Of a DNA stretch of 17,793 bases, positions 1-17,213 are shown piece after piece; the stretch's first letter is position 1, and every line of letters starts with the position of its first letter. This stretch comes from Silvanigrellaceae bacterium (GTDB taxonomy: Bacteria > Bdellovibrionota_B > Oligoflexia > Silvanigrellales > Silvanigrellaceae), in contig JBMSQQ010000069.1 of the NCBI GenBank assembly GCA_049423385.1, forward strand, positions 1 to 17,793, given 5' to 3'. The notes under the pieces are model-generated. The model did no database searches, had not been told where the DNA came from, and was given only the letters and a program-made list of their open reading frames with translations. A program made the position numbers and the translations under genes.

Positions 1-1292
1 GTCGCTTTTTTTGCAGCAACAGTTTTCGGCCTGAATGGTTTCGTTCTCTGTGCAGCAATCTCCATGTCTCTCTTTTCTTCGCTCAGATCAGTACGCGAGG
101 CGATGGGTTTAACGCTCATCCTTTATATTTGTCGACCCTGGGAGGTGCTGCCGGCCAACGACTGGTGGGCGCAGGTGCCTCGACAATGCATTTGGCTGTG
201 GTTGGTGGCTTGGCTCAAAGCAACAACCCAACAGCCCTTGCAAATTCTTGATGCCACAAAAATCTCGCGCGGAATCGGATTGACGCTCATTTTCGCAATT
301 TGGTGTTTGTTCACAACTCTTGTATCGCGCGACAGCGCCGGAAGCCAACAGTACTTCATCGACACTCTCTTTCGCGCCATCACGCTGGTGGTGATTCTCC
401 ACCTGACGGTGAGCTCGGTTGCCGATGTTGAACGCCTGCAATTGGCCTTTGTCGTTGGAGTCACGACTCTTGCACTGTTCAGTTTGTGGCGATTCCACGG
501 GCTCGATCAAACAGCACCTTTGGAACTGCTGCAAAGGAATTGGGAACAGTCGCAGGATCGGCGGCTCGAGGCCGTGGGTTCACTCGGCAATTCAAACGAC
601 ATCGCAGCAGTCATCATGATTCCACTTGGTTTCCTTTGGCCCACTCTTCTTGATCCAAAGACTTCATTTGCCAAGCGCACAGCAACAGCCACAATCGTTT
701 TTTTTTGCTCAAAACCCTTCTGGCGTCACAAAGCCGGGGCGCACTGATGGCTGCGGTTGCCCAATGCGGACTGCTGTTTGTGGCACGTTCAAAACAACCC
801 GGAAGGATGACATTCATTCTGGCAATGATTGTGGGAGTCCTGGGCTCTTTCGCAAACCAATTGCTTGGAAGAAATTCGGAAGACCTTGATGCATCAACTG
901 AAAGCCGGATGAACTATTATGTGACCGGGCTTCACATGGCATTCAACAGCCCCATTTGGGGACAAGGCTTTGGCCGGTATCCCTATGAGTTCGAGCGCTT
1001 TTCTCCCTTGATACTGCATGAGTGGGGACTGCGAACGGCACATTCAAGCTGGGTACTCGTGCTTGCAGAAACGGGCCTCGTCGGACTCTTTCTGTTTACG
1101 CTCATCCATCTTCACATCGCAAAATCATGCTGGGAACTGCGAAAAACACAACCATCACTCCTGTTGTCGTTTGCAGGCTACTCGTTCACGATTCTCTTTC
1201 TTTCACACTCTTGGCTGATGTTCCCCTGGATTCTTTTTGCACTCGCAGACCTGCACTTCAAGTTCTCCAACATCAGGGAATCAAAACCATGA
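1..1292 (+). CDS. O-antigen ligase/polymerase (Wzy_C/WaaL-like) family membrane protein; 5'-partial, frameshifted at the T9 tract (698-706)
   Basis: Frame 1 is open from base 1 (VAFFAATVFGLNGFVLCAAISM...) through ORF 64..747, with several hydrophobic segments and GSLGNSNDIAAVIMIP. After the T9 run, the frame of ORF 705..1292 carries the rest of the family signature: SQSRGALMA, STESRMNYY, PIWGQGFGRY, AHSSWVLVLAETGLVG. A T10 or T7 tract would join the two frames. Confidence 0.85.
698..706 (+). repeat. T9 homopolymer at the frameshift junction of the Wzy-like gene
   Basis: Sequence reads atc g TTTTTTTTT g ctc aaa acc. The family-like reading frame switches within this run. Confidence 0.9.
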
Positions 1293-2581
1293 GCAGCAAG
1301 ACCCCAAAAGATCTTTTGTGGATCGTTCCGCGTCTTCCATGGCCGCCCCGCTGCGGGGCGAGCTACGCCAATTGTGAACTCGTGCGTGCCATGGCCGACA
1401 GGGGGCATCGCATTCAACTCATTTGCTGGTCAAATGAAACTGTTGAAGTTGTTCCACCCGAAGCCCAGCGCCAACTGGGAGTCGAATCCATTTTTGTTCT
1501 ACAATGGCCCCTGTTGCTCAGAAACAAGTGGACACGACTGCTCATCAGCTTCGGCCTTCAGTGCCTGAGGCGCAAAATACCGTTGAGTGTCCTTCCCTTC
1601 ACGGCCGGAAGATTCAGAGAAAGATTGAATCAATTTTTGTCGAGGCATCCTTTCACCACCATCATTTGGGATGGACTTCACCCGATGGTGATTGCTCCCG
1701 ATAAAAAACCAAACGATTCAAAAAGAATAAACATCTACAGAGCCCACAACATCGAAGCATCCATCTGGCGTGGATTTGGGCGAGCACTGCCGTGGCCATT
1801 CGGGCATGTCTTTCAATGGCAAATCAAAAAAATGGACACCTTTGAACGCGCATGCATGACGTATTCGTCCGGCATTGCATTCGTGCAAGCCGACGATGAG
1901 TTTTGGTTCAAAAGCAATGTGAGCCAATCTGCTCAGACACAATTGGTTCCCATCTCCGTGGGCATCCCTGCTGACACCGCGGCCTGGCAGATTGCACGTT
2001 GGAGAAATGCACAAAGAGAAAGGAACGATGACAAGGGCATCTCACTTTTGTGGATTGGCGGCCTCGACTGGTGGCCAAACAAGCAAGCGATAGAATGGTT
2101 TTTGAAAAACATTTGGAAAAACGTCACAAGAATCAGACCAAACGCTCGCCTGACGCTGGTTGGAAAAGGAACAGAGCGACTCGACACTGTCCAGTTCAAC
2201 AACATCAATGTCTTTGGTTTTACCCAAGATCTCTCGCTGGTTTTAAACAATGCAGACCTCCTGATTGTTCCCATTCAGTCGGGCGGCGGGATGCGCGTCA
2301 AAGCTCTCGAGGCGCTATCAAGAGGTGTGCCCTGCATTGGCACACCCTTGGGAATATCGGGCCTTCCAAAGGAAGGACTCTATATTTGCAATGACGAACA
2401 CGAGTGGATCCGGGTGATCTCGAACGCCACGCCCGAGGAGTGCTTTATTCGCGGAATGATGGGATTTCGCGCGGTTCAGAGTCAATTCGATCGGGCTGCG
2501 AGTGCGCAGCGACTGGATGAACTGATTGAGAAATGCGAAAAGGTCTCATCCACTCCAAAAATGCATCACAGCACAACCTGA
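1289..2581 (+). CDS. Glycosyltransferase family 4 (GT-B), 430 aa
   Basis: ATG at 1289 overlaps the upstream TGA (ATGA). Motifs: LLWIVPRLPWPPRCGA, YRAHNIEASIW, WIGGLDWWPNKQAIEWF, VPIQSGGGMRVKALEALSRGVPCIGT. The 1022 start in the ORF track lies inside the upstream gene. Confidence 0.92.
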   Translation: MSSKTPKDLLWIVPRLPWPPRCGASYANCELVRAMADRGHRIQLICWSNETVEVVPPEAQRQLGVESIFVLQWPLLLRNKWTRLLISFGLQCLRRKIPLSVLPFTAGRFRERLNQFLSRHPFTTIIWDGLHPMVIAPDKKPNDSKRINIYRAHNIEASIWRGFGRALPWPFGHVFQWQIKKMDTFERACMTYSSGIAFVQADDEFWFKSNVSQSAQTQLVPISVGIPADTAAWQIARWRNAQRERNDDKGISLLWIGGLDWWPNKQAIEWFLKNIWKNVTRIRPNARLTLVGKGTERLDTVQFNNINVFGFTQDLSLVLNNADLLIVPIQSGGGMRVKALEALSRGVPCIGTPLGISGLPKEGLYICNDEHEWIRVISNATPEECFIRGMMGFRAVQSQFDRAASAQRLDELIEKCEKVSSTPKMHHSTT

Positions 2582-4361
2582 GTTGCTCAAATTCCCTGAC
2601 AGCAGCACCGGGAGGCAGCAAGAAAGGGTCGCGAATATCCTCGCTGCTGAGCGAATGCGCAAATTCTGCAACGAGAACACATTTTTTCAAGTACTTCAGC
2701 CCAAAGGTCCGAACGACTCGAAGCAAATGCGACTTCTCCATCAGGACAACAATATCGGCATTGTCCAAATCATGTTCGGAAAGTTGTTGTGCCCGATGCT
2801 CTTCGGGCGCAAAACCGTGATGGCGAAACAGCGAATGAAATCTTTTCGGAACACTTTTGTCTTCCACCTGAAGACCGCGCGATAGTGTCGAGAATGTTGA
2901 CCCCTGCAATTTGTCCCGCAAATACATTTCCGCAAACGGACTTCTGCAGCGATTGCCCAAACACACGAAAAGTAACTGCACCTTGCGTGGGTGAACGATT
3001 TGAAGTTCTCGTAACCCACTTGTTCCGCGTATCAGGGTCAAAAGCGATGTTGCGCATTCCGACGCGCGAACCACCACCCGACTCCAAAGTGCCACTGCAG
3101 TCACTTGGGTAAAGCGCATCCATTGCCTAACGCAAGGACGCACGTCGTCCGAGGCAAAGAAATCAAAGCGCATGGCAGGGTGAATCAAGACGTTGAAACT
3201 GGCCACCAAAAAGCGCACGGCGCGCTGAAGCGTCAGCTCGCCATTGACCAGCGATCTTATCACCGATGAAAGGTGCTGAACCTCGCCAGGGTAGATATTG
3301 GTGCAATAAAGATGCTTGGCAAAGACGGCATTGAAGTCCATCAACCCGGCGGCCTGACTCGGATGCGCCGCAGTGAGCGCATAGGAACGAAGAGGAGAAC
3401 TGGACGGTTGAAGTCCAGCCAGCTTTGCCCACTGAGAGACGAAAGCAAAACCTGCGTGATTCGCGAGGGCCAAAGATCCCCACGGCCGGGCGTTCAATTC
3501 AACAAAAAGAACATCGCCTGCACCTTGAACATCTTGCGCAAGTGCGGAAGATCTGCGGAACTCAATCATCGCCATTCCAGTGTGACTCAGTCCCGCCAGA
3601 AAAACCTCTGCTGCTCGGCGAAGACCCAGGTCGAATGTCAATCGCTTGCGCGCACTCACGCCACCGCTCCATGGAATCTCGGCCAATCTTTCGTGTGTGT
3701 GCCACAGACGCACGTCGCCATCCACCATCAAAAAGAATGCACCGCAACCGCTTCCATCGAAGAAATCCTGCAACAAATAGGAAACTCCTGAGTTCTGCAA
3801 TTCTTCATGCAACGCATGCAATTCCTGTTGCGATTGCACAACCCAATTCCGCCCTTTGCAGTAGCGATCACCATCCCAATGGTTATCAGTGCGAACGATC
3901 TGTTTGCCTTCGGAAAAAGAACGCGTGGGTGCCGGATCGTTCTGGCCAATCACGACACCATCTGCCACCCGCAGACCCAATTTCCTGGCACGATGGAAGG
4001 ATTCGATCTTGCTCAATCCATAAAAAAGAACTCTTTCACCGGCGCAAAGAAGTTGAATTGAAGGTGGTAATTCAGAACGCCATCTCATGACAGCGGCAAT
4101 GGTCGACTCGCTCACGGGCAGTATCGCATCTGCTCCCACACTCAACGCAAAAGAGACGATCTCAGCCAAGGCTTGTTGAGGATTCCACCACGGACTCACA
4201 ATCGCACGGTAGCTCTTCACATACCCGCTCGCAGAAGCGGGTGAACTGCGTTCAACACCGCAGACAAATACATCATACCCCGCACGTCCCAAATCTCGGA
4301 CACACGCCAAGGCGGCCAGGGAGTCACCGTCTGTCACGAGGATTCTCGCAGGTCTATTCAT
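2445..4361 (-). CDS. ATP-grasp amide-ligase-like domain fused to a C-terminal low-molecular-weight protein tyrosine phosphatase (LMW-PTP/ArsC fold), 638 aa
   Basis: ATG at 4361 overlaps the deacetylase stop (ATGA). ATP-grasp region: ILVTDGDSLAALACVRDLGRAG, YLLQDFFDG, PWSGGVS, GMAMIEFR, VELNARPWGSLALANHAG. Phosphatase region: P-loop FVCLGNRCRSPFAE (C-X5-R-S at 2940-2963), ADIVVLMEKSH, DIRDPF. Confidence 0.88.
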   Translation of the reverse strand: MNRPARILVTDGDSLAALACVRDLGRAGYDVFVCGVERSSPASASGYVKSYRAIVSPWWNPQQALAEIVSFALSVGADAILPVSESTIAAVMRWRSELPPSIQLLCAGERVLFYGLSKIESFHRARKLGLRVADGVVIGQNDPAPTRSFSEGKQIVRTDNHWDGDRYCKGRNWVVQSQQELHALHEELQNSGVSYLLQDFFDGSGCGAFFLMVDGDVRLWHTHERLAEIPWSGGVSARKRLTFDLGLRRAAEVFLAGLSHTGMAMIEFRRSSALAQDVQGAGDVLFVELNARPWGSLALANHAGFAFVSQWAKLAGLQPSSSPLRSYALTAAHPSQAAGLMDFNAVFAKHLYCTNIYPGEVQHLSSVIRSLVNGELTLQRAVRFLVASFNVLIHPAMRFDFFASDDVRPCVRQWMRFTQVTAVALWSRVVVRASECATSLLTLIRGTSGLRELQIVHPRKVQLLFVCLGNRCRSPFAEMYLRDKLQGSTFSTLSRGLQVEDKSVPKRFHSLFRHHGFAPEEHRAQQLSEHDLDNADIVVLMEKSHLLRVVRTFGLKYLKKCVLVAEFAHSLSSEDIRDPFLLPPGAAVREFEQLRLCCDAFLEWMRPFRISQSVHPVAAHSQPDRIDSEPREIPSFRE

Positions 4362-5296
4362 AGGAATCGGCTCACAAGATTCCATTTTCTCGAGCTCAGA
4401 AGCTCACCCACATCCGTCTGAGGCCCGACGCAAAATCTTCTGAGCGCGTAGGGCTCGGAGCAGTGCCGATTCCACCCGGCAATGGTTGTGACCGCAGAAT
4501 CTACGCCATGCTCCCGCAAAAGATGCGCACATCGCCGACCAAAGTCACCGGACTGACCATTCGGATAGGCGTAATGCAATGGCCTCACACCAAAGACATC
4601 CCTCAGGAAGCCGACGCTCTCGGCAATTTCCTTTTTCAACTCGACCTGGGTCAATTTCGAGTGAATGGAATGGTTAGCCGAATGGGCGCCAAAGGAGAAA
4701 ACGCCAGACGAACGCGCAGCCAGGCACTCGCCAACATTTGCTAGTCGGCGCTCGCGATGCACAGGGATTGCATCAACCTGCAGTGCCAACTGAAGATTGT
4801 TGAGCAACTCAGATATGGCATCTGGATGCAGCTTCTTCAGAAAACTCTGCAGTTTCCTGTTGGCTGCCGCCTTTTGACTGTCAGAGCCAAGAGGAATATG
4901 TCGACCCAGAAAATCGAAGCCCTCAAGCTTCGTTGAGGAAATCAGTTCAATGACTTGGGTAAACCAAGGATTCAACTCTTCCCTCGACAAACGCGTGGGC
5001 AAGAAAACAGTTGCCTGCGCAGAGTGTTTCTTGAGAACGGGTTCGGCCATCGCCAATGAAGCGGCGAAACCGTCATCAAACGTGAGCGATACCGACGGAG
5101 CCGAAAGCTTGCCCAGCCTGAGCAACTCGACCGCCCTATCCAAATCCAAAAATCTCCAACCAAGGTCGGCCACTTTTTTCAAGTCGGATGAAAATTTATC
5201 AGCCGAGACAAAGCAAAAATCATTCAAATGCTCTGAACTGTTCTGTGTGAGTCCATGGTAGCAGAGAATCACAAGTGGAGGCTTATGAATCAACAT
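4358..5296 (-). CDS. Polysaccharide deacetylase (CE4/NodB homology), 312 aa
   Basis: ATG at 5296 has GAGGAG upstream and overlaps the previous gene by 7 bp. Motifs: VILCYHG, SLTFDDGF, ATVFLPT, FGAHSANH, YAYPNG, YALRRF. No N-terminal signal peptide is evident. Confidence 0.92.
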   Translation of the reverse strand: MLIHKPPLVILCYHGLTQNSSEHLNDFCFVSADKFSSDLKKVADLGWRFLDLDRAVELLRLGKLSAPSVSLTFDDGFAASLAMAEPVLKKHSAQATVFLPTRLSREELNPWFTQVIELISSTKLEGFDFLGRHIPLGSDSQKAAANRKLQSFLKKLHPDAISELLNNLQLALQVDAIPVHRERRLANVGECLAARSSGVFSFGAHSANHSIHSKLTQVELKKEIAESVGFLRDVFGVRPLHYAYPNGQSGDFGRRCAHLLREHGVDSAVTTIAGWNRHCSEPYALRRFCVGPQTDVGELLSSRKWNLVSRFL

Positions 5297-7572
5297 CTTT
5301 CTGCTCCTCTCTTCATTCCCTTCAAAACTCCAAACAGGGTCGCCGGTGGAATCACGGTTGGGATTAGAACAACCGCAGCAGCACTCAAAACCAGCCAATC
5401 CGGCAAGACAAAAATTGGCGCAATCATCTTCAATATAAAGACGCACAAAACGACGCAAATGATGTTTATCTGCACAGATTGTGCTGGAACAATCCAAGAA
5501 ATCCTGAGGCCACTCCGAACAACATCGGAAAGCAAAAATCCGATACGGCTCAATGCCGCAGCAAAAACTCCCCCCGCAACCGCACCTGCAACACCGTGCC
5601 AGGAAAATCCGGCAGCAACAGAAGAAATGCTCAGCAAAGCCGAGGCAATGGAAAAGAACAAGATGCGCCTCGAGCTCCCCTGAGCCCGCGAAAGCGCATC
5701 GGGTGGAATGCAATTCAGCGCGTTTGCAAGTGCGAATATTCGCATCACGCCCGATGCTTCCTGATAGCGATCCGCAAAAAGCAACGACAAAATCTCGGGT
5801 GCAAAAAGCATCAAGGTCGCAGTCCACGGAACTGCAAACCTGGCAATTTTTCCGATGCACTCCCTGATGATCGCTGCACACCGTCGCGATTCACCATTTT
5901 GCAAAGAGAAAGCGATCTCCTGCAAGCGATGTTGCATGACCGATTGTTCCAGGAGATTCGCCAGCGGAAAGGAAAGTGTTCCGGCTGCAACCAACGAAAA
6001 CTCCGTTGGCGACAACCTGTGAAGCAGAAAAAATCGATCAAAGGTGGATGCAAAAACGGCCAGTGCTGCCGAAACACCCACAGGCCATGCAGACCTCAAT
6101 ATCGAGACTCCATGCACAAAAGATGATCGCGAAAAGGGTCTGCACTTCACGTCCCGGTTCAGCAACTTCAAGGCAACCAGCCGCACCATCAGAAATGCCG
6201 GAATCACAAAAAGGACATCCAACAAAGATTGTTGTAAAAAAATCAGCGCGAACATTGTCGCAATCTTGGCAAATTCACAGATTCCAACAATGCATGCAGC
6301 CAACAATCCCCTTCCACGCACGTTGAAGTGCTGCTCGAGAAAAACACATGGCAAAAGAGCCCCGGCTGAGAGTGCCAGAATGATGTTGATGTTGCCTTCT
6401 GGAATGGCATCAAGGGGGCCCCAGGCAAAAACGCTCATTGCGCAGATCACTGCGGCCACACACTGAAGGTGCCAGGCGGTTGAAACCATCTGCACACCGT
6501 GCTCACGATTGAGCTTCCACCAAGGGATGAGGCTCCAGAGTCCAGACGTCAAACTCAAAGCAGCGACGGACGAAAGATACAAACCAAAGCTGCGAAACTG
6601 TCCAAACTCATCCTTGTTTAACAAACGTCCCAGCGCTATCGGCACGGCCATGTTCAAGATTGCGACCGCTGCCTGCACAACAGCCTGATTCGCCGAATCG
6701 CTCTCCAATTTTCGAATTCGGCGCATCACCTTGGAAATCACCCAGTCGCCCAACATCCAAAGCATCGACAATGTCCACAGCGGAAAGAGGGCAGGATTTC
6801 GACAAACAATGGCCAGTCCGCCGGCACCCATCACGCGCAATCCTGTCCACTTGAGAAGAGGCGCGAAGGCATCCGCCGCCAGCGAGCTTTCTTGTTGCTG
6901 TCGCCAGCTATAGGTCGGCGTCATGGAAAGTGTGATGGGGGAGCGGGTCACCAGTCTCATCAGAAATTCCATGTCTTCGCAACGCCAGAGAGATTCCTTA
7001 AAACCTCCAAGAGCCTCGAAAAGCGATTTTCGAATCACAAGCCCCGAAGGCTGAAGAAAGTTGCCAAAAAGCGCCTGAGTTTCTGCATTCCCGTGCCAAA
7101 AATCACGATTGTTCCGAGGACAAAAGAGGAACGAAAAAAGCCTGGAAGACGATCGAAACGCAGGAAATGCTCCGACAAATCCTTGCCGCCCGGACTGCGG
7201 ATTCAGAGCGGCATCGGTGATGTTGAAGTTGCTGATGACCACATCGGAACCTTGCTGTGATTCAAGGATTCGCAAAACGTTTGCGATGTGTTGCGGATGC
7301 CAGACATCATCCGAGTCCAAAAATGCAATCCACTTTCCGTGTGCAAAAAAGGCGCCAAGGTTTCTTGCGGCCGATGGTCCTGCGCGAAAGGTGGACAGCA
7401 AAACAATGTCGTTCTGATTCTTACACCATTCGTGCGTTCCGTCGGTGGAACCATCATCCACAACAATCAGTTCGTGCACCGAAGTGGCTTGGCTTCTCAC
7501 CGATTCGATCGCCAATTTCAACATCGGAAGGCGATTCCAGGTGGGAACCACAACAGAGACTTCGGCAATCAT
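5290..7572 (-). CDS. GT2 (GT-A) glycosyltransferase fused to a Wzx/MOP-superfamily oligosaccharide flippase, 760 aa
   Basis: ATG at 7572 overlaps the upstream stop (ATGA). Residues 1 to ~280: VSVVVPTWNR, VVDDGSTDGT, GPSAARNLG, IAFLDSDD, CEDMEF. Residues ~283-760: multi-TM region with flippase-like segments PIALGRLLNKDEFGQF, STFDRFFL, LFAPEILSLLFADRYQEASGVMRIFAL. Confidence 0.85.
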   Translation of the reverse strand: MIAEVSVVVPTWNRLPMLKLAIESVRSQATSVHELIVVDDGSTDGTHEWCKNQNDIVLLSTFRAGPSAARNLGAFFAHGKWIAFLDSDDVWHPQHIANVLRILESQQGSDVVISNFNITDAALNPQSGRQGFVGAFPAFRSSSRLFSFLFCPRNNRDFWHGNAETQALFGNFLQPSGLVIRKSLFEALGGFKESLWRCEDMEFLMRLVTRSPITLSMTPTYSWRQQQESSLAADAFAPLLKWTGLRVMGAGGLAIVCRNPALFPLWTLSMLWMLGDWVISKVMRRIRKLESDSANQAVVQAAVAILNMAVPIALGRLLNKDEFGQFRSFGLYLSSVAALSLTSGLWSLIPWWKLNREHGVQMVSTAWHLQCVAAVICAMSVFAWGPLDAIPEGNINIILALSAGALLPCVFLEQHFNVRGRGLLAACIVGICEFAKIATMFALIFLQQSLLDVLFVIPAFLMVRLVALKLLNRDVKCRPFSRSSFVHGVSILRSAWPVGVSAALAVFASTFDRFFLLHRLSPTEFSLVAAGTLSFPLANLLEQSVMQHRLQEIAFSLQNGESRRCAAIIRECIGKIARFAVPWTATLMLFAPEILSLLFADRYQEASGVMRIFALANALNCIPPDALSRAQGSSRRILFFSIASALLSISSVAAGFSWHGVAGAVAGGVFAAALSRIGFLLSDVVRSGLRISWIVPAQSVQINIICVVLCVFILKMIAPIFVLPDWLVLSAAAVVLIPTVIPPATLFGVLKGMKRGAERC

Positions 7573-10400
7573 GGACGCACCAGCCCCGAGGATTCCGCCA
7601 CGTCCAAAAGACACGCTGCGAGCTGATCCCTGGCAAGGTCGTAGTCGGCTGAATTTCGACTCCAATGTGTGGCGCTGACCACCGCATTGAATCTTGCTTT
7701 CACGCTTTCAAAGCATTCGGGATTGTGTTTTTTGGCCAGCAATAGATATTCGGCATCAAAGGACGCCTGTCGCCAGTATTTCAGGCGCAGGGAAGGCACA
7801 GGGACGTGATCCGAAAGTCCATGTTCACCAGGACGGCCCGGATAAAAAAGTGTTCCATCGCCGTTTCCGCTGAAGTCCCAAACGTTTTCCCAAACATTTG
7901 TCGTCTTGGCCTTTCGCCAGATGTTGTTGACGCTGTAATAAAGTATGCGCTTCAGGCCATAGTGGCTTGCCATCCATGGCCACACACGTATGTAGGAAGC
8001 ATTTCTTTCAATCACAAAGTCGGGCTCACCGCTCGACCTGTCGTTGCCACAGCCATGGCTCATGCAGCTCACATACGCCCACAGCTCATTGTCGGGACCA
8101 AGATCAGGTGGACCTTCACGGTCCAAAATCTGAAGCAATGGAGCAAAGATTTGAATGGAATCCACAAGACTCTGCCACGGATAAATCGTAACCAAGGATG
8201 AAACAGAAGGTGAGCCAAGCCTGAGACTTTCGGCAACTTCGCTCAAAGACAAAAGATCTTCCTGGGTGGGCTCATCCCAAAGGTAAACAATCGGATCTTT
8301 CGCCATGCGTCTTTGCAACTCTGCCTCTTTCAAGTCTTCTGCCGAGCCATCCAAAAATTCCTGCCAGCGCCTCCAGTAGCGAAGCCTTTCAGCAGGTTCC
8401 TTGCTGTCGATGCGTGGAAGATCGACAGCAGCCCAGTGCGGGAGCTCGCTCACCACCGTGTCGCCATAAGACATTCCAGGTTGAGGATCCCGGCTCAGCA
8501 AAAAGCTCCCGCTCAGCTGTTCTTCCAGTTTCTTGAACGGATGTTTGATCCAAGCCTTGAGCGGCAGAACGCGGTGCTGGACCATCGAACGCACATATGC
8601 GCGCGTCAGCGGGCCTTCCTGCTCGGTCGACTTGCCAAAATGCGCCAATGAGGCAAACCAAGGGGTAAATTCCGAAGACAACGGCAACGCCCATGGCTCA
8701 GACATGCGATAGGGCAAAACCATCAAATGGAACCGCCAGCGCCGGAACCCTGTTGGCAACTGTTCTCCATTTTCTGGTGGATGCATTGCACTTTCAATTG
8801 TGAAGGTGGTCTTGCCCGGGGGTGAATCCGGATCAATTGTCAAATCTGCAAACAGCCAGTCGACTTTCCCACCCTCCAAGGGCACGCAATCAATGGCGCG
8901 ATTCACGGGAACCAGAGCATCAATATAATTGCCCGTTTTCGCACCTTCATATGAGGGATTTCGAACAGAAATCGACAGTCCGCGATACCATTGCAAGTTG
9001 GGCTTGTGCGCTTCATTCGCACCGACAAGCTTGGGCAGCGACCCGCAGAATCCTTCATTTTTAAGAGTCAACAGGCGAGTCTCACCGGGAAACACAAATA
9101 CATCGAATTCCTCTGCGTAGCTTTCGCTTTGAAGATATTCGGGTCGCTCAAGGGCAAGCGTCAGACTCTGCTGTGCGTGGGCAATCGACGAAGAAGAAAG
9201 CAGGACAACGGGCAGCACCACCAACGCGAGCGAACGAACGGCGTTTGCAATGACACCCTCGGCAGCGTGATAAACATCTTTGTATTTGTTGACCATGGCC
9301 GCAAGACCAAATTGTCGGCGAAAGGCATCTCGATGCAGCCAGTCATTGAAGCGCTCATACGGAGTTGCAGAACCATGTTCCTTGAGGAATCCGGCAAGGC
9401 ATTGCTGATCGTCTTGCATGGTCGTGGCAAATGGCATCAGTGCCCGGTGCCCTTCGATGTCTGAGATCAAAACCGGCAAACCAGCACCCACTGCTTCGCA
9501 CGCAGCCAAAGGCATTCCTTCCTGCTCCGACAGAGAGACAAAAGCGTCTGCCGCAAAATGCCAAAGCTCGGGAAACGCCGTGGGACCAACAAACACTGGA
9601 GAAGGCAATTCCTCGTTGGCGGCAGAGAGCAAGGGATCCAGGGCACGCTTGAAAAACGAAGAATCCACAGGCCCCACTATCAACAAACACCAATTTTCCC
9701 TGAGCGACTGGGGCAGATGCAGCCACATTTCCAACAGACGTTCTATTCCCTTTCCCTGAACAACCCGACCCAGAGCCATCAGCCAGCGCTTGCTGGAGGC
9801 AGCCTCAACCGTGACCCTCAGTTCCTTCGACATGCGATCCATCAGCCAGCGTCGGGCGCGGCCTTTCTCAATGAAATTCTCAGCAAACGAGACACCATTG
9901 GGAAGTGTGATCAATTTCCGGGAATTGATCCCCAGAGCGCGATATGTCTCGGCCAGCCCTTCCGAAACCGTGCAGACCTTTTTGGCAAAGGCAGTAAAGA
10001 TTCGTTCATAAAGGGCGTATCTCTTCTTGCCCTTTCGAAAATGAACGAAGCTGTGCTGGGTGTGAACAAGACGAATCCGAAACGCGGATAAAACCACAAC
10101 CATTGCGCCGTAGATCAAGGCACCCAAATCGTGACTGTGAATGATGTCGATTTGCCGCGCCCGTGCCATTTTCGAAATGCGCAACAGGGTTCCAAAACAA
10201 AATCCTGGCCGCTTCTGCATAAGGACGATTTCCACACCGGCGGATTCAAGTTCACCCACAAGCCGTGCATCCACGCCAGCTGTCTCGTAAGCCACAACGC
10301 AACACTCAACGCCCTCGCGAGATAACCCACGGGCCAATGAAACCATCATTCTCTCGAGCCCACCCAGGGCAAGATATTGGCTCAACAACAAAACATTCAT
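7569..10400 (-). CDS. GT4 glycosyltransferase fused via a signal-peptide-like segment to a DUF4091/GH123-like glycoside hydrolase domain, 943 aa
   Basis: ATG at 10400 has GAGGT upstream and an ATGA overlap. GT4 region: LGGLERM, DIIHSH, LVHTQH, LPNGV, LGRVVQGKG and the EX7E motif EGMPLAACE. Residues ~389-409 are RSLALVVLPVVLLSSSSIAHA. C-terminal region: YLWDEP, WAYVSCMSHGC, GNGDGTLFYPG, PSLRLKYWRQASFDAEYL, which resemble DUF4091 proteins. Confidence 0.82.
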   Translation of the reverse strand: MNVLLLSQYLALGGLERMMVSLARGLSREGVECCVVAYETAGVDARLVGELESAGVEIVLMQKRPGFCFGTLLRISKMARARQIDIIHSHDLGALIYGAMVVVLSAFRIRLVHTQHSFVHFRKGKKRYALYERIFTAFAKKVCTVSEGLAETYRALGINSRKLITLPNGVSFAENFIEKGRARRWLMDRMSKELRVTVEAASSKRWLMALGRVVQGKGIERLLEMWLHLPQSLRENWCLLIVGPVDSSFFKRALDPLLSAANEELPSPVFVGPTAFPELWHFAADAFVSLSEQEGMPLAACEAVGAGLPVLISDIEGHRALMPFATTMQDDQQCLAGFLKEHGSATPYERFNDWLHRDAFRRQFGLAAMVNKYKDVYHAAEGVIANAVRSLALVVLPVVLLSSSSIAHAQQSLTLALERPEYLQSESYAEEFDVFVFPGETRLLTLKNEGFCGSLPKLVGANEAHKPNLQWYRGLSISVRNPSYEGAKTGNYIDALVPVNRAIDCVPLEGGKVDWLFADLTIDPDSPPGKTTFTIESAMHPPENGEQLPTGFRRWRFHLMVLPYRMSEPWALPLSSEFTPWFASLAHFGKSTEQEGPLTRAYVRSMVQHRVLPLKAWIKHPFKKLEEQLSGSFLLSRDPQPGMSYGDTVVSELPHWAAVDLPRIDSKEPAERLRYWRRWQEFLDGSAEDLKEAELQRRMAKDPIVYLWDEPTQEDLLSLSEVAESLRLGSPSVSSLVTIYPWQSLVDSIQIFAPLLQILDREGPPDLGPDNELWAYVSCMSHGCGNDRSSGEPDFVIERNASYIRVWPWMASHYGLKRILYYSVNNIWRKAKTTNVWENVWDFSGNGDGTLFYPGRPGEHGLSDHVPVPSLRLKYWRQASFDAEYLLLAKKHNPECFESVKARFNAVVSATHWSRNSADYDLARDQLAACLLDVAESSGLVRP

Positions 10401-11146
10401 GCCAAAACCTCGCGCTCAACAAGTCGTCGAACGACGCGCGCAGGATTGCCGGCGATAATGCTTCTTGGAGGATATTCACCACTGGTCACCACACTACCAC
10501 TGGCGACAATGCAACCGTCTCCCACACGAGCACCCTTGAGAATTGTGCAATTTGCACCCAGCCAAACATCGTCACCTATGAGCACCGGATCAGTCGGTGC
10601 AATCCAGCGGGTCTCGCTCTCCTGTTCAGAAAGCTCCTGGGTGTCGCCAAACTTTGGGTAAAACTTTCGGCAAATCGACTTCACCTGTTCGCCCCGCAGG
10701 GAAGGGTCAAGCGGATGAGGATCGTTGTCCTGGATAAAGACATTCCAGCTGGTCAGAACCCGATTGCCTATAACAACCAACTCACGCGCCGATATCCTGC
10801 AGTCGCCAATCACCCCGCACTGGCCAATGCGAATGCAGCCATGACCCAATGCCTCCAGACGTGAATGTTCGTATAGAATAGAGTCATCGCCAATTTCGAT
10901 GCGGGAGTGACTTCCAATTCTCACCAACGACCGCAGCCGCTGGATGCGTACATTCCGACCCAACAGAAGACCTTTTCTATGGAGAGGTGAAATTCTCATC
11001 ACAAGATTGCTGATCCAAAACATGAGAAAATTTCTGGTCATGGCTGGAACGAGCAAAAGATGGCTACGGATGGCTCTGCCGACAAGGTCGAAAAAAGTTC
11101 TGGCCTGATGAAATCTTTTGCCGACTTTTTTTTCAGTCAACTCCAT
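10397..11146 (-). CDS. Hexapeptide-repeat (left-handed beta-helix) O-acyltransferase, maltose/galactoside acetyltransferase-like, 249 aa
   Basis: ATG at 11146 follows GAGGAGGACGAGGTGAG and overlaps the GT2 gene by 10 bp. Motifs: IEIGDDSIL, VVIGNRVLTSWNVFIQDNDPHPLD, PVLIGDDVWLGANCTILKGARVGDGCIVASGSVVT, IIAGNPARVVR. Confidence 0.92.
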   Translation of the reverse strand: MELTEKKVGKRFHQARTFFDLVGRAIRSHLLLVPAMTRNFLMFWISNLVMRISPLHRKGLLLGRNVRIQRLRSLVRIGSHSRIEIGDDSILYEHSRLEALGHGCIRIGQCGVIGDCRISARELVVIGNRVLTSWNVFIQDNDPHPLDPSLRGEQVKSICRKFYPKFGDTQELSEQESETRWIAPTDPVLIGDDVWLGANCTILKGARVGDGCIVASGSVVTSGEYPPRSIIAGNPARVVRRLVEREVLA

Positions 11147-12261
11147 CTCACCTCGTCCTCCTCGTTTCGACCTCGGCCCAGGAAAGTCCTGATCGCCAAC
11201 CACGACGCAGCAAATGCCGGCTGCCGCGACAGGGCAATCACCGGGACGACAGACACAATCAGGGTCACCAATGCAAATGCCGGGTTCCGAGTCAGAATGG
11301 TGTATTCCCACGCCGCGATATTCATCGACGCAATCAAAGACAAAGGAATCACGCACCAGAACAACCGAACCGCACGTCTGAGGGAAATCAAGAGTACAAG
11401 TGGACTCCATTCCCACATGACGGGTACAAGGTGACCGATCCATTGAAGGTTTCCACGCGCAATTCTTTTTCTTGCAAAAACCTCTGCCGGACCCAGACGC
11501 AGCGAAGTGTCCTGAACAGAAAATCCACCCTCTTGATTCTGTGCATAAACGATTCTTTTTTCAGGCGAGACAATGCGCAGGGCCATTGGAATCACCACAT
11601 CGTCGTTGATCCACTCCCGCCCTTCCAAAAGTGTCAGTGCCTCGAGAAGGTCCTTCCTTCGATAAAAGACTGTTGCGCCATGTACAGAAACAGGACCCCC
11701 GGATTTGTTTTCAAGACATTTCAAAAACGCCTCAAGTCGCCAGTAGGCTCGTGCAAGCAGACCAGCATTGAGTGTTTGATAGCGCGGGGCAACGCACATG
11801 TTTTCGGCGCGTTCAAACAGGGGATGACAATTGCGCAATAAACGCGGATCCCAAACGGTTCCTGCATCAACCAACGCAACCCAGTCGGCTGTGCTTGCCG
11901 AAACAAGACTGCGCAGAACCTTCCACTTTGACTTGTATGAAAAGGCCATGGCTTTCAGCCGGAATCCATGAGTATCGAGAACTGTGTTGTCGGAACAAGC
12001 GTCAAGACCCACACTCACGTTCACATTGAGATCCGGAAACAATCTGTTTGCATTCCGGATCGCCGTGACAACCGATTTCAGGGTTTCTCTCAGCCTTCCT
12101 TCTTCATTGTGGCAAGGAATAAGCACATCCAGAGAATGAACTTGTTCCAAAACTTCGTCCGTCGGGTTTCTTCCGCGAACAAACAATTGCGAGATGATCG
12201 GAAAAAAGAAGACAGCAAGAAGCAAGACAAAGAACCCAATCAGGAAGGACATCCACCACAT
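11137..12261 (-). CDS. Membrane-anchored GT2 glycosyltransferase (CESA-like subgroup), 374 aa
   Basis: GGAGG ribosome-binding site before ATG 12261. N-terminal TM helix, then VLIPCHNEE, LDACSDNT, ALVDAG, VHGATVFYRR, INDDVVIP, RKRIARGNLQ and C-terminal TM helices. Confidence 0.9.
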   Translation of the reverse strand: MWWMSFLIGFFVLLLAVFFFPIISQLFVRGRNPTDEVLEQVHSLDVLIPCHNEEGRLRETLKSVVTAIRNANRLFPDLNVNVSVGLDACSDNTVLDTHGFRLKAMAFSYKSKWKVLRSLVSASTADWVALVDAGTVWDPRLLRNCHPLFERAENMCVAPRYQTLNAGLLARAYWRLEAFLKCLENKSGGPVSVHGATVFYRRKDLLEALTLLEGREWINDDVVIPMALRIVSPEKRIVYAQNQEGGFSVQDTSLRLGPAEVFARKRIARGNLQWIGHLVPVMWEWSPLVLLISLRRAVRLFWCVIPLSLIASMNIAAWEYTILTRNPAFALVTLIVSVVPVIALSRQPAFAASWLAIRTFLGRGRNEEDEVRWS

Positions 12262-12320: not shown

Positions 12321-13553
12321 CTATTTCCTTTTCATCCGAATCGGATAGTGAGCGCCTGTGAAGGTTGAAAGGCCCCATCCTCGAATCTCGCATCGGCCCC
12401 AAGGGTTCCTTTCAGCGAGCAGCCTCCAACCCAAAGGGACGTTCATCTGCATGTTGATGAAGGTCAGACGGCCTGAATGTTCGTTGTATCTGCCAAACGA
12501 AAACGGCAGACGCAGGACCCCCTCGTCGCTAGCAAAGACTGCAGCAAGTTGACGCGGCCCGATTCGCTCAATTGTGAACTGACCCTCAAGGTCAGCCAGA
12601 CTCATTCGATAGTTGCCCAGCAGTTCCTCTTCAGTGCAAGGCTTGTTGCTTACGACGTCTACTTTAATCAGACGGCGAGCCTTGATGTGGATTTTTTTGA
12701 ATTCGAGCGGATCAAGCATGGTTCCTTCCACGCTTGAAAAGCTTTCATCGAATTTGAGTTGAAGGACCGAGGGCACTGCAGATCCAAACGACTGTCTGCT
12801 GCCGAGCCACTGGGGACTTTCGTTGAAGGAGAGCTTTTGAAAAGTTGTTGGTCTCAGGGTGGGGTGACTCAAAGAAGCCACAACACCGAGGTCTCCACCC
12901 GTGGAGAACAACACCAGACGAAGGTTTTCAACGTCTTCACTCAAAGGCCCGTCAATGCTGGTCAGAAGAAAAACACCTTCCCAACCATCGACCACCTCAA
13001 GAAGTTGCGTCGATAGAGCACTACCTAGCTGAAGCGCCTGCCGTGCAACGTAATCGGCATCTTTGAGATCCATGCTGACGGCTTCTGCATTGCGGGCAAA
13101 GCAAACCAGCTCCTTGATGGCCTGGTGATCCTGAAGAGCCTCAACTCTCCGCAAAAAGAAGTCGAGCGCCGCGAAACGTTGGGATTCTCCTGCCAACTCG
13201 GAATAACCGCTGCTCAGCCGCTTGCAGTCGCGCCAGACCCACTGCACCAACAAAAACACGCTCTGGTCGCGCAATGCCTTGGTTTCGCGTAGCACGTAAT
13301 CTTCATCATTCACCTTCTGAACCAGCTCAACAGCTGCGCGGGCAAATTCAAGAAGATTGTTGAGCTTGGCCTCGGCCTTCTCCCTTGAGAATTCTTGCCT
13401 GAGTTTGCTGACCAGCTGAAACCTATAGGATTGGTTCTTGCTCTCCATGGTCTTCAGCTCGGCTGCGACGTCGCAAATAGGTAAATCGCAGCCCAGGGCT
13501 GTCGCTGTGAACATCAGACCCGGGAGTGCAGCACAGAGCGCGACCAGCCTCAT
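12321..13553 (-). CDS. Secreted hypothetical protein with an internal helical repeat, 410 aa
   Basis: GAGGT ribosome-binding site before ATG 13553. Signal-peptide-like N-terminus MRLVALCAALPGLMFTATALG followed by CDLPIC. Long ORF filling the gap between the kinase and GT2 genes. No family recognised. Confidence 0.8.
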   Translation of the reverse strand: MRLVALCAALPGLMFTATALGCDLPICDVAAELKTMESKNQSYRFQLVSKLRQEFSREKAEAKLNNLLEFARAAVELVQKVNDEDYVLRETKALRDQSVFLLVQWVWRDCKRLSSGYSELAGESQRFAALDFFLRRVEALQDHQAIKELVCFARNAEAVSMDLKDADYVARQALQLGSALSTQLLEVVDGWEGVFLLTSIDGPLSEDVENLRLVLFSTGGDLGVVASLSHPTLRPTTFQKLSFNESPQWLGSRQSFGSAVPSVLQLKFDESFSSVEGTMLDPLEFKKIHIKARRLIKVDVVSNKPCTEEELLGNYRMSLADLEGQFTIERIGPRQLAAVFASDEGVLRLPFSFGRYNEHSGRLTFINMQMNVPLGWRLLAERNPWGRCEIRGWGLSTFTGAHYPIRMKRK

Positions 13554-13752: not shown

Positions 13753-16185
13753 CTAAGTCGAATTCTGAATCGCCGAGAGAATGTCCTCCCAACTCGCATT
13801 TTTTTCCAACCGAGCGCTTATGCCTGCCGAACGCAGGCTCTGCTCAGAAATCTCTGCATCGGTCAGCAAAACGATGGGACGTGAATATTCCAATGCACGA
13901 AGGTCTGCAGCCAGTCGAAGACCTGTGAATTCGCTACCGGCGGCAAAATAATGATCTGTGATCACCAAATCATATTGCGAAAGCGCATTGGGATTGTCGT
14001 GCAATTTTTCAAGCCATACCTGAGGCGAAGAATGGCTTTCCACTTCAGCTCGACCCTTCAATCGCGATTTGAAGACATAGAGCATGAATTCCGAATCATC
14101 GATGTGGGCAACCCTGAGTTTTCGCGCACTGCTTGACTGGACTTCTCCAGACTTGATGGTCTTCGCTCCCAACGCCTCTGCCAACAGCTTGATGAGATGA
14201 CTGCGCCCCATCGGCTTTGGCAAAATGATATCAGCACCGGCAGCGACTGCAGCCTTGTTGTCCCGGGCGGAGAGCCTGTTGGAATGAACGCAAACGAGTC
14301 CCTGAAAACCTGCCGCGCGTGTCCGACGGATGAGCTCGAATCCATCCACTTCGCCCGCACCAAGGTCGAGATCCAGGATCAAAAGTCGCACTCCAGACAA
14401 ATGCTCCACCAATCCTTCAATGCTCATCTTTTGCAGGGTTTTGAAATTCAATCTGGCTGAGACATCAGGCAACGATGCCATGATGCCGAGAAGGCTGTCG
14501 AGGTAAACCTGTTCATCATCCACGGCAAGAACAACCGGCGGTTCAGTGCCCGCAAGCAAACGTTCCTGAATCTTTTCGATAAGCCGCGAGTCGTCCTCAT
14601 AGACATTCTCCCCTGAAGACTGCGCAGCTGGCTTTATGATGCTGACGAACTCTTTTGAATGAAAGGGCAAAGCTTTTGCTGCATCCAAGTCTTGCTCTGA
14701 AGAAATCGGGAGAGTGAACACGAACTCGACTTTACCTTTTGGAAAATGAACATTCTTGAAAGACTCACAGCGAATCTGTCCGCCATGCAGCTCGACAATC
14801 TTCTTGACGATGGCAAGTCCAAGGCCCGTGCCCCCTTCCTTGTTCGCGGTGTAGAAAAGATCAAACAGTCGTTGTCGGGCATCCTCAGTGATGAAAGATC
14901 CAGAATTGGAAATACATATTTCCAGCTTTTCAGAAGTTTCATTCGTGCTGATGGAAATTTGATCACCATCGGGCATCGCCTGTATGGCGTTCTCGAGGAT
15001 ATTCAAAATAACTCGACCCATATGAACCGAGTCAACCAACACCTTTTTTCGATGTGAAAAATTATAATTCAAGAGGATATGACGCTCAGGATAAAGACCA
15101 AATGCCTCACGCAACGAATCTCCCACAAGCGTCCGCACCGACAGTGGCGCAGTGTTGAGCTTCGTTTCGCCACCCATCTGCATCACGTCGCGAATCATCA
15201 CATCGACTTTCTTCATTGCCAGGTTTATTTCGGGAATGGCACGAAAGAATATCTCGCGAGCCTGCACAATGTCGGATGTCGACTGGACCGCCTCAATCAA
15301 TGCCTTGAACATCGAAAACGGCTTGCGCACGTCGTGGGCAAAGGCCTGTGTCGATCGTGCAATCGCACCTTGTGCGGTAGACAATTCAAGAACATCCAAA
15401 TAACTCTGCAATGATGTTCGCAGTGACGAAAGCTCGAGAGTCTCTTCCTCGGCATTGGTGCGCAAAGATTCCCGCACTTTCTGAACCGCTTCGTCACTCG
15501 TCTCCTGAGCCTGACGCATCAACGCGGTCAGCCGGAGCAGAGGATTGACCTGCTGCCGGCTCGCGTAAAATACCGCAAGACCAGTTCCAACTGCAGCAAG
15601 CACACCAAAGCCAACAAATGCCAGGGTAAAGTTCAATGCTGTGTTGCGGGCACCTTGTGGTGCAATTGCCACCCTCAACTGAGCACAAGCTGACGACTGT
15701 TCCGGACACGACACCGGAAAACCCACCAGCAACACTTCATCGCCTGCCTGTAGTTTGACTTTGAACTTGGATGCCAGAACCTCATCCGCAATAAACGGCA
15801 AAGCCACCTGTTGCGTGAAGTCGATTGGCAATTCGGGCTCCCAAGATTGTTTTGCCTTGCCCACCTCGCCCGAATTGACTCCCTCGATGCCTACATCAAT
15901 GAGGCCATTGTTTCTGACGATGTAGCTGTAAATGATGTTGGGGCTTTCAGAAAGAAAGCGTTGTTGGGTTTCCAAATGAAGAAGATTGTCCTGCTGATAG
16001 AAATATCCCAGCGTCCAGGTTGTGAAGCGCTCTGCGTAACTTCGCGCTTCAGCAATAAGCTGCTTCTCCAAAAGGTTCTTTTGATAGACACCAAAAAATG
16101 ATGCGGAAAGGGTTATGAAGCCAGCACCAATCAGTGACGCAATGAGGGCTATCCGTCCGGGCAGAGATCGGGTCAGCATTTTCAT
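13753..16185 (-). CDS. Membrane-bound hybrid sensor histidine kinase with two C-terminal receiver domains, 810 aa
   Basis: ATG at 16185 overlaps the upstream stop (ATGA). Two TM helices flank an extracytoplasmic region of roughly 170 aa. H-box FAHDVRKPF, N-box LNILENAIQAM, F/G2 boxes FDLFYTANKEGGTGLGLAIV. REC1: AVDDE, LILDLDLG, HSN, PKP. REC2: HIDDS, VITDHYF, LLTD, EKN. Confidence 0.93.
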   Translation of the reverse strand: MKMLTRSLPGRIALIASLIGAGFITLSASFFGVYQKNLLEKQLIAEARSYAERFTTWTLGYFYQQDNLLHLETQQRFLSESPNIIYSYIVRNNGLIDVGIEGVNSGEVGKAKQSWEPELPIDFTQQVALPFIADEVLASKFKVKLQAGDEVLLVGFPVSCPEQSSACAQLRVAIAPQGARNTALNFTLAFVGFGVLAAVGTGLAVFYASRQQVNPLLRLTALMRQAQETSDEAVQKVRESLRTNAEEETLELSSLRTSLQSYLDVLELSTAQGAIARSTQAFAHDVRKPFSMFKALIEAVQSTSDIVQAREIFFRAIPEINLAMKKVDVMIRDVMQMGGETKLNTAPLSVRTLVGDSLREAFGLYPERHILLNYNFSHRKKVLVDSVHMGRVILNILENAIQAMPDGDQISISTNETSEKLEICISNSGSFITEDARQRLFDLFYTANKEGGTGLGLAIVKKIVELHGGQIRCESFKNVHFPKGKVEFVFTLPISSEQDLDAAKALPFHSKEFVSIIKPAAQSSGENVYEDDSRLIEKIQERLLAGTEPPVVLAVDDEQVYLDSLLGIMASLPDVSARLNFKTLQKMSIEGLVEHLSGVRLLILDLDLGAGEVDGFELIRRTRAAGFQGLVCVHSNRLSARDNKAAVAAGADIILPKPMGRSHLIKLLAEALGAKTIKSGEVQSSSARKLRVAHIDDSEFMLYVFKSRLKGRAEVESHSSPQVWLEKLHDNPNALSQYDLVITDHYFAAGSEFTGLRLAADLRALEYSRPIVLLTDAEISEQSLRSAGISARLEKNASWEDILSAIQNST

Positions 16186-17213
16186 TCTTCGCGCAAGCCC
16201 CTCACAAAATAACTGCACTCCTGTTTTCCGTCGTTCTGGCACAGCTGATACGGACCACCCAACTCATTCGGGATGTCCTTTCCGGCGAATCCGCGCACCA
16301 ACTCATAGCGAGCAGGCTCCGATAGAGTTTGGGTCTGTCCGGTCATGTATTCCACAACCAATTTCTTTCTTGATGTTTGCGCTTTTTCGGATTTTGCTGA
16401 CTTTTCAGACTTTTGAGACTCAAGCGCCAAGACTTTCGAGACTGGACAATACAACAGCTCTCCCATGTTGGCCCGCGGAGGCTCCTTCTTCCTTCGCCCT
16501 CGCGGATAGTTCAATTTTCCAGTTTTCTTGTCGCTGCAAAGAGAGCCAACCTTGTTGCCATTCAAGGTCTGGCCATTGACCTCAAGATTGAGGTCGGGCT
16601 TGCCAATAAAAATTGCAGATACCCACCATGCCCACCATGATTGTTCCGAGAGATATGAAGCCTTCGAATGGTTGAGAAATGCTAAAAAAGGAGCTCCCTT
16701 CCGCCAGTTGAGTCTCTGCCCCTTTTCAAATCCAACAATGACTGCCTGTGCCTTGATCACGTCTTCGAACGGGAGAGAAACAGAATAGCTGTCGCGGCCA
16801 ACGAAGGTGATCGTCTCGGCATTGAGAGACCCGAACTGTTCTTCTTTGATGCCTGAATGGAGGAGAAGATCACGAACCGTGATTCCAAAGAATTCAGACT
16901 CAACGTGTTGAGGATTGACCACGTCGTGGGGATGGTTCATGCGAAAAGACTTTTTTTGCAACAATTCATATGGTTTTTCGAGGTCAGTCTGTCGAGACAA
17001 TGCTCTTGTATTCACAGAAATCCAGATTCGGGTGACGTCCCTGGTTTCCGATGAACTGGCGTTCAGATTCTGCTGAAAGCCAAGCAGACACGCCAAAGCG
17101 ATGAACAAACGGAAAGAAGATCCCAGCCTCATGCAGGAGCAATGGATTTCTGAATTTTCACGCGATATCAAAACACCTGGAACGTCATTCAACTTTTCAT
17201 CTTTTGCCTGCAT
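16182..17213 (-). CDS. Exported protein with degenerate molybdopterin-oxidoreductase (SUOX/MsrP-like, PruR-like) domain(s); alternative start at 17132
   Basis: Hydrophobic segment FRLFIALACLLGF followed by QQNLNA. Then the pattern EFFGITVRDLLLHSG, ITFVGRDSYSVSLPFEDV, IVGFEKGQRLNWRKGAPF, WWAWWVSAIFI. A weaker second copy near the C-terminus: GKDIPNELGGPYQL, YFVRGL. GGAAGAG lies upstream of ATG 17213. Confidence 0.7.
   Translation of the reverse strand: MQAKDEKLNDVPGVLISRENSEIHCSCMRLGSSFRLFIALACLLGFQQNLNASSSETRDVTRIWISVNTRALSRQTDLEKPYELLQKKSFRMNHPHDVVNPQHVESEFFGITVRDLLLHSGIKEEQFGSLNAETITFVGRDSYSVSLPFEDVIKAQAVIVGFEKGQRLNWRKGAPFLAFLNHSKASYLSEQSWWAWWVSAIFIGKPDLNLEVNGQTLNGNKVGSLCSDKKTGKLNYPRGRRKKEPPRANMGELLYCPVSKVLALESQKSEKSAKSEKAQTSRKKLVVEYMTGQTQTLSEPARYELVRGFAGKDIPNELGGPYQLCQNDGKQECSYFVRGLREE
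16380..16415 (-). repeat. Imperfect 9-bp tandem repeat, four copies, encoding QKS-EKS-AKS-EKA
   Basis: Minus strand reads CAAAAGTCT GAAAAGTCA GCAAAATCC GAAAAAGCG. Confidence 0.6.

Follow-up and report, generated by a model that had tools for sequence, protein, structure and literature searches.

We analysed a window of 17,793 bases, which is the whole of one contig (C69) of a metagenome-assembled Silvanigrellaceae genome (3.47 Mb in 183 contigs). An operon of polysaccharide genes on its minus strand includes one gene whose product joins a GT4 glycosyltransferase to a GH123-like hydrolase through a segment that resembles a signal peptide (Table 1). As an earlier note made from the letters alone had claimed, the glycosyltransferase runs without a stop into the C-terminal part, and the open reading frame, from 10400 to 7569, encodes 943 residues with no internal stop. 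The segment lies where that note had placed it, with R389 starting at nucleotide 9236 and A409 ending at nucleotide 9174. It is followed by 534 residues, close to the 530 or so estimated there, in which YLWDEP and the other quoted motifs are present.

Table 1. Features of the window, in window coordinates.
Feature	Position	Strand	Basis or remark
GT4 - internal signal - GH123-like fusion gene, 943 residues	7569..10400	minus	single open frame; fused in all matching relatives
GT4 glycosyltransferase domain, residues 1-377	9270..10400	minus	Pfam; alignment with stand-alone GT4s
E294-X7-E302 motif of GT4	9495..9521	minus	invariant 18/18
M369, sole in-frame ATG ahead of the signal	9294..9296	minus	structural Met of GT4, no Shine-Dalgarno
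Signal-peptide-like segment, residues 389-409	9174..9236	minus	sequence, motif test, low-confidence linker in model
GH123-fold (DUF4091) hydrolase domain, residues 410-943	7572..9173	minus	profile, homologs, fold
D709-E710, aligned to GH123 catalytic DE motif	8271..8276	minus	invariant 66/66
GT2 glycosyltransferase, first enzyme gene of operon	11137..12261	minus	Pfam
Hexapeptide-repeat acetyltransferase, upstream; stop overlaps fusion start	10397..11146	minus	start codon inferred from relatives
GT2 fused to Wzx-like flippase; start overlaps fusion stop	5290..7572	minus	Pfam
Polysaccharide deacetylase (CE4-type)	4358..5296	minus	start codon inferred
Protein with C-terminal low-molecular-weight tyrosine phosphatase	2445..4385	minus	Pfam, relatives; genus-conserved
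Second GT4, convergent half of cluster	1292..2581	plus	Pfam
wzy (Wzy_C), truncated by contig start, frameshift-split	1..1292	plus	Pfam, relatives

The C-terminal part was searched against 41 genomes, 11 of which matched: the source genome and 10 of the 12 others of its genus. A profile search of all 33 genomes of the family returned the same 11 matches and none in the seven other genera, and neither half was matched in two genomes of the genus, G001 (94% complete) and G004 (91% complete). In all ten matching relatives the GT4 domain precedes the hydrolase in one frame; nine of these frames are 933-1022 residues long, and the tenth, ended by its contig at 780 residues, still crosses the junction. 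The protein database yielded 17 further full-length fusions, 44-85% identical to the query, one of which represents a cluster of 22 members, and the protein clusters contain many full-length fusion members from several sources. Homologs spanning the junction, for which the earlier note had suggested a search, are thus found in the database and among the relatives alike. It had also considered that close relatives might carry two separate genes, and this is not the case, every matching relative being fused. Stand-alone close relatives were absent from the 42 GT4 matches listed (212-676 residues), among which the match at 82% identity is a fusion broken by a contig end and the next-best matches lie at 33-39%. 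Nor did separate close stand-alone forms occur among the loci ranked best, 80 in genomes and 79 in metagenomes.

Contigs from sequencing runs were compared with the window across the same region. A single contig of run X1, which is possibly the source sample, covers 7000-9688 with five differing letters and no gaps. Run X3, which belongs to a different study, gave two contigs that cover 9165-9582 and bridge the join between GT4 and signal; one of them shows 67 differences together with a compensated pair of indels at 9390/9394, and in this run no single record has 31 letters on both flanks of the cut site. The junction is not covered in runs X7 and X8. No indel was listed in the sequencing-run contigs within 9150-9300, the interval for which the earlier note had suggested a comparison with reads. 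An artefact of assembly or gene calling, or a recent loss of a stop codon in one strain, might be suspected in a metagenome assembly of 183 contigs whose wzy gene carries a frameshift, but it is refuted by the open frames of the relatives. The full-length cluster members from several sources speak against it too, as do the indel-free junctions in contigs from two studies, and we give it practically no weight. These results indicate that the fusion is real and conserved and is no assembly error.

In the N-terminal domain, Pfam GT4 families span residues 13-320, with GT-B profiles above their curated cut-offs (PF13439, 94.6 bits against 28.5; PF00534/PF13692, 44.8 bits against 26.4). The hallmarks of GT4 enzymes are an E-X7-E motif and an Arg/Lys pair for the nucleotide sugar. 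In each of the 18 fused homologs E294, E302, R212, K217 and H116 are unchanged, which agrees with the complete GT4 and intact EX7E motif claimed previously. A named subfamily was not reached, the best NCBIfam match (TIGR03088) scoring 83.9 bits against a cut-off of 409. We set the end of the domain at Y377 because stand-alone orthologues (33-39% identity) terminate a few residues past an MxxxYxxxY helix.

Searching the two halves separately, as had been suggested, gave a mixed outcome: the GT4 half matched Pfam, whereas the C-terminal part alone matched no Pfam family even at E 10, and phmmer with the C-terminal domain alone found no match in the PDB. The predicted GH123/DUF4091 identity was borne out through homologs, profile and fold. 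PF13320 was matched by 36 of the 50 members of the homolog alignment, the query itself being without a match, and a profile search of the PDB retrieved NgaCa (E 1.7e-47), with NgaDssm and NgaAt next. The hydrolase model, with a predicted local distance difference test score (pLDDT) of 94.5, consists of an N-terminal beta-sandwich, a (beta/alpha)8 barrel and the DUF4091 fold. The first 18 Foldseek rows listed were all GH123-type (E 1e-23 to 2e-18, template-modelling score 0.61-0.69), and the next fold followed at E 1e-6. The adjacent Asp-Glu pair that had been expected is D709/E710 (nucleotides 8276-8271) in YLWDEP, which aligns with the DE motif of NgaCa, NgaDssm and NgaAt and is invariant in 66 of 66 close homologs. 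In the full-length AlphaFold model both domains are present (predicted template-modelling score 0.58), and residues 399-408 of the junction fall below pLDDT 50.

Nine residues are described as conserved across the characterised GH123-type groups, of which Group 1 NgaCa is an open-cleft enzyme that releases oligosaccharide (PMC11087588). By a correspondence inferred through profile alignment to NgaCa, six of the nine are kept (D494, D709, E710, Y776, Y853 and R872), and the domain is predicted to work like a GH123 substrate-assisted hexosaminidase. Against a full equivalence, three are replaced (Trp by F517, Gly by R818 and Trp by Y822); a substrate-binding Trp is among them, its place being taken by Y822 in 66 of 66 close homologs. 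GalNAc is not assured as the substrate because of these replacements. Six Cys residues (452, 505, 779, 784, 896 and 930) are invariant in the hydrolase, compared with one in GT4, and this set suggests disulfides and an exported location.

We then examined whether the junction looks like a signal peptide. Residues 389-409 contain a basic residue, an 11-residue hydrophobic core and a Ser run, and a cut is predicted after A407-H408-A409, or alternatively after A407. The 120 homologs listed were classed as 18 GT4 fusions (query included), 32 Wzy fusions, 67 stand-alone hydrolases and 4 others; for most of the stand-alone hydrolases the label was assigned from a database protein sequence alone. To count as a site, a position needed Ala at -1, a small or aliphatic residue at -3 and anything but Pro at +1, and had to lie 2-11 residues behind the best 11-residue hydrophobic core. 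P0066 and stand-alone rows with fewer than 26 residues ahead of the anchor motif were left out of the scoring, and the scored rows are kin and had been seen before the rule was set, so p-values overstate. This small-x-Ala site was found in 17/18 GT4 fusions and 32/32 Wzy fusions, and in 10/13 close and 43/47 distant stand-alone hydrolases. Shuffling within the GT4 junctions gave a mean of 9.2/18, and 17 was reached in none of 2000 trials. The site keeps its place in 17/18, lying 9-13 residues ahead of the motif with which conservation in the mature domain begins, and the median n-side charge of the junctions is +2. With the rule unchanged, 8 of 8 held-out further Wzy fusions had the site, which in one of them was read by eye, the script having chosen the wrong helix. 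A stricter rule with D/E/Q at +1/+2 retained 11/18 GT4 fusions and 26/32 Wzy fusions, compared with 30 of the 254 internal hydrophobic segments of the genome that served as controls. Among ten proteins whose N-terminal extension was of another kind (CBM96, lyase, fn3, Ig-like or unannotated), none had a hydrophobic junction. The genome encodes one LepB gene by family search.

Seventeen control segments passed the stricter rule with a charge bias for the N-in orientation, and the three signal-looking ones were examined; all three turned out to be fusions. The first (C15:27505-32055, L176) joins an AcrB-type RND pump to an outer-membrane efflux protein in 1517 residues through a junction like a signal peptidase I site, with frames of 1450-1542 residues in 15 of 17 matching family genomes. 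The second (C3:7376-9577, L175; 734 residues) links a MacB/FtsX-type permease to a ZnuA-type binding protein through a signal-like junction, with frames of 727-742 residues in 11 of 12 matching genus genomes and ZnuA separate in other genera. The third (C33:17987-20491, L177), family-wide and 835 residues long, connects CcmF to CcmH via a signal-like segment. In the loci read, the site was present in 14/14 for the AcrB fusion, 11/12 within the genus for the permease-ZnuA fusion and 14/14 for the CcmF-CcmH fusion. Given the known architecture of RND systems, the AcrB chain must be cut to occupy two membranes: a pump in the inner membrane and a channel in the outer one presumably cannot remain a single polypeptide. 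Cutting of internal signals in this organism is therefore very likely. The control set was conservative, since it contained these three fusions.

The hydrolase also has other upstream partners. Besides Wzy, a search with cluster representatives found a third partner, an AT3 acyltransferase (P0164, two cluster members), whose lipobox-like junction with the hydrolase suggests processing by signal peptidase II. In Bdellovibrionota and similar genomes the hydrolase comes after wzy, either fused to it or as the next gene: the wzy stop and the hydrolase start overlap in L027, and the two genes are separate in L035 and L032. Both halves appear to have been members of the cluster before fusing, because in L024 and L027 an orthologue of the GT4 is encoded a few genes farther upstream. 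In a 94-row tree built by a quick method, the GT4 fusions form one branch with support 100, and well-supported branches force at least four changes between Wzy-fused and stand-alone forms. The upstream partner of the hydrolase looks exchangeable because these two forms interleave. One Wzy-hydrolase fusion (L023:600-1200) has an in-frame stop in the hydrolase N-domain and is either a broken gene or an assembly error. Database annotations name the fusions 'glycosyltransferase' or 'O-antigen ligase'.

Several observations weigh against cleavage of the GT4 fusion. The site rule was of our own making and was fixed after the GT4 and Wzy junctions had been seen, and controls also meet it in 41-53% of cases (114/254 internal hydrophobic segments, 47/114 of those with N-in charge bias and 17/32 last Wzy helices). 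A strict A-x-A occurs in just 6/18 GT4 fusions. These 18 fusions form one clade of a single origin, so they are not independent and the motif could be partly inherited. The median 19-residue insertion energy of the GT4 junctions is 2.2 versus 2.0 for internal membrane segments, with weaker cores in N-terminal signals (4.0-4.7) and Wzy junctions (4.2), and such anchor-like hydrophobicity also fits an uncut anchor. A weight matrix from 60 stand-alone family signals gave medians of 1.2 for GT4 and 6.3 for Wzy junctions against 12.9 in leave-one-out scoring; it was dominated by Ala-rich sequences of high G+C content. Another, trained unlabelled on 377 N-terminal segments of the genome, reached only p 0.03 against controls; it converged on the lipoprotein Cys and misplaced cut sites. 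Both matrices were dropped in favour of the plain site rule.

The anchor-like hydrophobicity, the scarcity of strict A-x-A and the single origin would also suit an uncut single-pass protein, with GT4 inside, the hydrolase tethered outside the inner membrane and the Ala motif an ancestral left-over. NdvB and OafA are examples of uncut glycosyltransferase-hydrolase and acyltransferase-esterase chains. Proteins with a cytoplasmic domain, a membrane segment and a periplasmic domain are ordinary, as in RodZ (PMC9360617). A left-over motif, however, should decay in a junction whose mean pairwise identity is 18.5%, compared with 44% in GT4, 39% in the hydrolase N-domain and 59% in the barrel, yet 17 of the 18 fusions retain it in a fixed position. 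The like junction between AcrB and the outer-membrane factor presumably cannot stay uncut, and a hydrolase tethered to Wzy would sit at the export conduit from which PslG, the periplasmic glycosidase of the Pseudomonas aeruginosa psl operon, is described as barred (PMC13434223). We consider an uncut product unlikely, and the comparative evidence favours cleavage by signal peptidase I.

Cleavage might instead be conditional or partial, either slow or triggered by a signal, so that tethered and free hydrolase coexist and release acts as a switch, for example in dispersal. This would reconcile the anchor-strength core with the retained cleavage motif, and RsiV offers a case of a regulated signal-peptidase cut at an internal site (PMC4183432). 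The junction nevertheless contains no conserved regulatory sequence, and stand-alone homologs with ordinary signals hold the same gene position in other lineages, which makes a switch of this kind improbable.

A separate hydrolase could also arise from an internal start at M369, which would give it a normal N-terminal signal of 30-41 residues. The earlier note had seen no in-frame ATG directly in front of the segment, but one, M369, is present at a distance of 20 codons; it lacks a Shine-Dalgarno sequence and is structural, being the conserved Met of the last GT4 helix. It is invariant and in frame in 18/18 fusions, and the shortest junctions would yield a signal of ordinary length. The same Met, however, is equally invariant in the 13 of 13 close stand-alone GT4s that reach the position, and no anti-Shine-Dalgarno pairing below -4 kcal/mol was found at M369 in 11 of 11 orthologues; this mark is passed by 57% of 776 confident starts and by 12% of 4632 internal ATGs. 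The full-length chain would, moreover, still need handling. Internal initiation at M369 is unlikely, and as the source of the hydrolase we would hardly expect it.

The genes around the fusion indicate the pathway in which it may act. With overlapping starts and stops, the operon runs GT2, acetyltransferase, fusion, GT2-flippase, deacetylase and tyrosine-phosphatase protein, and wzy and another GT4 converge on it. In four relatives the convergent half consists of a priming sugar transferase, a GT4, Wza, a gene for 350-360 residues and wzy (Pfam matches in relatives: Bac_transf, GT4, Poly_export/SLBB and Wzy_C). Wza and Wzz homologs are encoded on contig C64 of the source genome, the co-polymerase being assigned by tblastn alone, with no Pfam match in the genus. 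By its gene content, the cluster is a Wzx/Wzy-dependent polysaccharide cluster, so the GT4 is a repeat-unit transferase and not the polymer synthase that had been supposed. For the same reason the analogy drawn to synthase loci of the BcsZ type gives way to a closer one, that of PslG, a GH39-family protein, beside Wzy rather than BcsZ beside BcsA.

Within the operon, the GT2-flippase is one continuous match in seven relatives and is interrupted by locus ends in two; the flippase-like domain matches at E 8.7e-6. This second fusion is conserved in the genus, and in L022 the GT2 is a separate gene directly behind the hydrolase. The N-terminal part of the tyrosine-phosphatase protein, where there is no Pfam match, we take to be ATP-grasp-like, and no homolog of a Wzc-type kinase was found in the source genome with two queries. 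The wzy frameshift lies at a nine-T run (698-706), and in four of four relatives wzy is one frame of about 500 residues without such a run; it is an assembly slip or phase variation. Upstream of the operon, 12321-13553 encodes a protein of about 410 residues with an apparent N-terminal signal and no Pfam or NCBIfam family, which is 51-61% identical to proteins in the same place in nine relatives. Beyond it, in 13753-17213, lie a hybrid histidine kinase with two receiver domains and, upstream of that, a gene with a weak molybdopterin-oxidoreductase match; no link to the cluster was seen for either.

From these comparisons we think it probable that the chain is divided by LepB, which would leave GT4 in the cytoplasm with a tail as membrane anchor and release the PslG-like hydrolase into the periplasm. 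The gene would have arisen by fusion of a GT4 gene in a Wzx/Wzy surface-polysaccharide operon with its downstream neighbour, which encoded a secreted GH123-like hydrolase, and the hydrolase would have retained its own Sec signal peptide. The ribosome would make a single 943-residue chain, of which the GT4 part folds in the cytoplasm. Targeting probably begins on emergence of the hydrophobic segment, on the model of RodZ, in which SecA is reported to recognise a distant membrane segment (PMC9360617). Segment 389-409 would insert with its N-terminus inside and its C-terminus outside and start export of the C-terminal part, and LepB would then cleave after A409 (or A407). GT4, tethered to the inner membrane through a short tail at its C-terminus, would add its sugar to the lipid-linked repeat unit; a membrane tail suits an enzyme of lipid-linked sugars and may account for the stronger core. 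The freed hydrolase, of about 60 kDa and probably disulfide-bonded, may trim or clear polysaccharide that the cell itself makes and that contains N-acetylhexosamine, much as PslG acts on Psl. A wider proposition has two parts. In the first, fusing adjacent operon genes into polyproteins for signal peptidase to process would be a routine of this lineage, with four or more conserved examples in one genome, one of them led by a large soluble cytoplasmic enzyme that is left with a membrane tail. In the second, the hydrolase would belong to a GH123-like clade that serves Bdellovibrionota Wzx/Wzy systems as a so far unrecognised, PslG-like standard component and has repeatedly fused to and split from whichever gene precedes it. 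On the two together, our judgement is evenly balanced.

Polyproteins that signal peptidase divides are regarded as rare in bacteria. In this case three unrelated upstream enzymes are found joined to one secreted hydrolase, apparently by the hydrolase's own signal peptide, and four conserved fusions of this type occur in one genome. They form a natural series for asking what makes LepB cut an internal segment, and they bear on whether export is possible for a domain that follows a folded cytoplasmic one of 42 kDa. Annotation pipelines that search for signals only at the N-terminus mislabel such genes, so that the exported enzyme is hidden. Should the hydrolase target polysaccharide made by the same cell, the GH123 fold would have a role in biosynthesis or biofilm release, beyond glycan foraging. 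In the literature searched, with subscription journals mostly uncovered, we found no report of a GT4-GH123 or Wzy-GH123 fusion, nor of a GH123 protein in a polysaccharide biosynthesis cluster, although supplements may list such proteins.

The principle of an internal signal-peptidase site has precedents in FbcH and RsiV. FbcH of Bradyrhizobium japonicum reportedly gives cytochromes b and c1 from one gene via such a site; its upstream part is a polytopic membrane protein and both products belong to one complex, whereas the leading part here is a soluble cytoplasmic enzyme of 377 residues. NdvB of Pseudomonas (GH17-GT2) and fungal Ags1 are uncut processive glucan synthases whose outer domain acts on their own product. 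They share the plan of glycosyltransferase inside and hydrolase outside, but the GT4 here is a repeat-unit transferase and its link looks cleavable. The hydrolase shares its three-part fold with NgaCa (PDB 8K2F/8K2G, Group 1), which is the nearest, NgaDssm (8K2J) and NgaAt (8K2H), with Foldseek E 1e-23 and template-modelling scores of 0.64-0.69, to which it is only 12-18% identical and from which it differs by a clade-specific SCMSHGC loop (PMC11087588). Neither its biosynthesis-operon setting nor its internal signal is described for the characterised GH123 enzymes in the available text of that report (PMC11087588). PslG is likewise a periplasmic glycosidase encoded with Wzx/Wzy machinery, beside Wza, the co-polymerase, Wzy, Wzx and glycosyltransferases, and it is proposed to be a fail-safe for misrouted polymer that is kept out of the export conduit (PMC13434223). 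PslG is encoded by a separate gene, whereas the hydrolase described here is GH123-like and fused to a biosynthetic enzyme. RsiV of Bacillus subtilis likewise combines a cytoplasmic domain, one membrane segment, an outside domain and an internal signal-peptidase site, which signal peptidase is reported to cut only upon lysozyme binding (PMC4183432).

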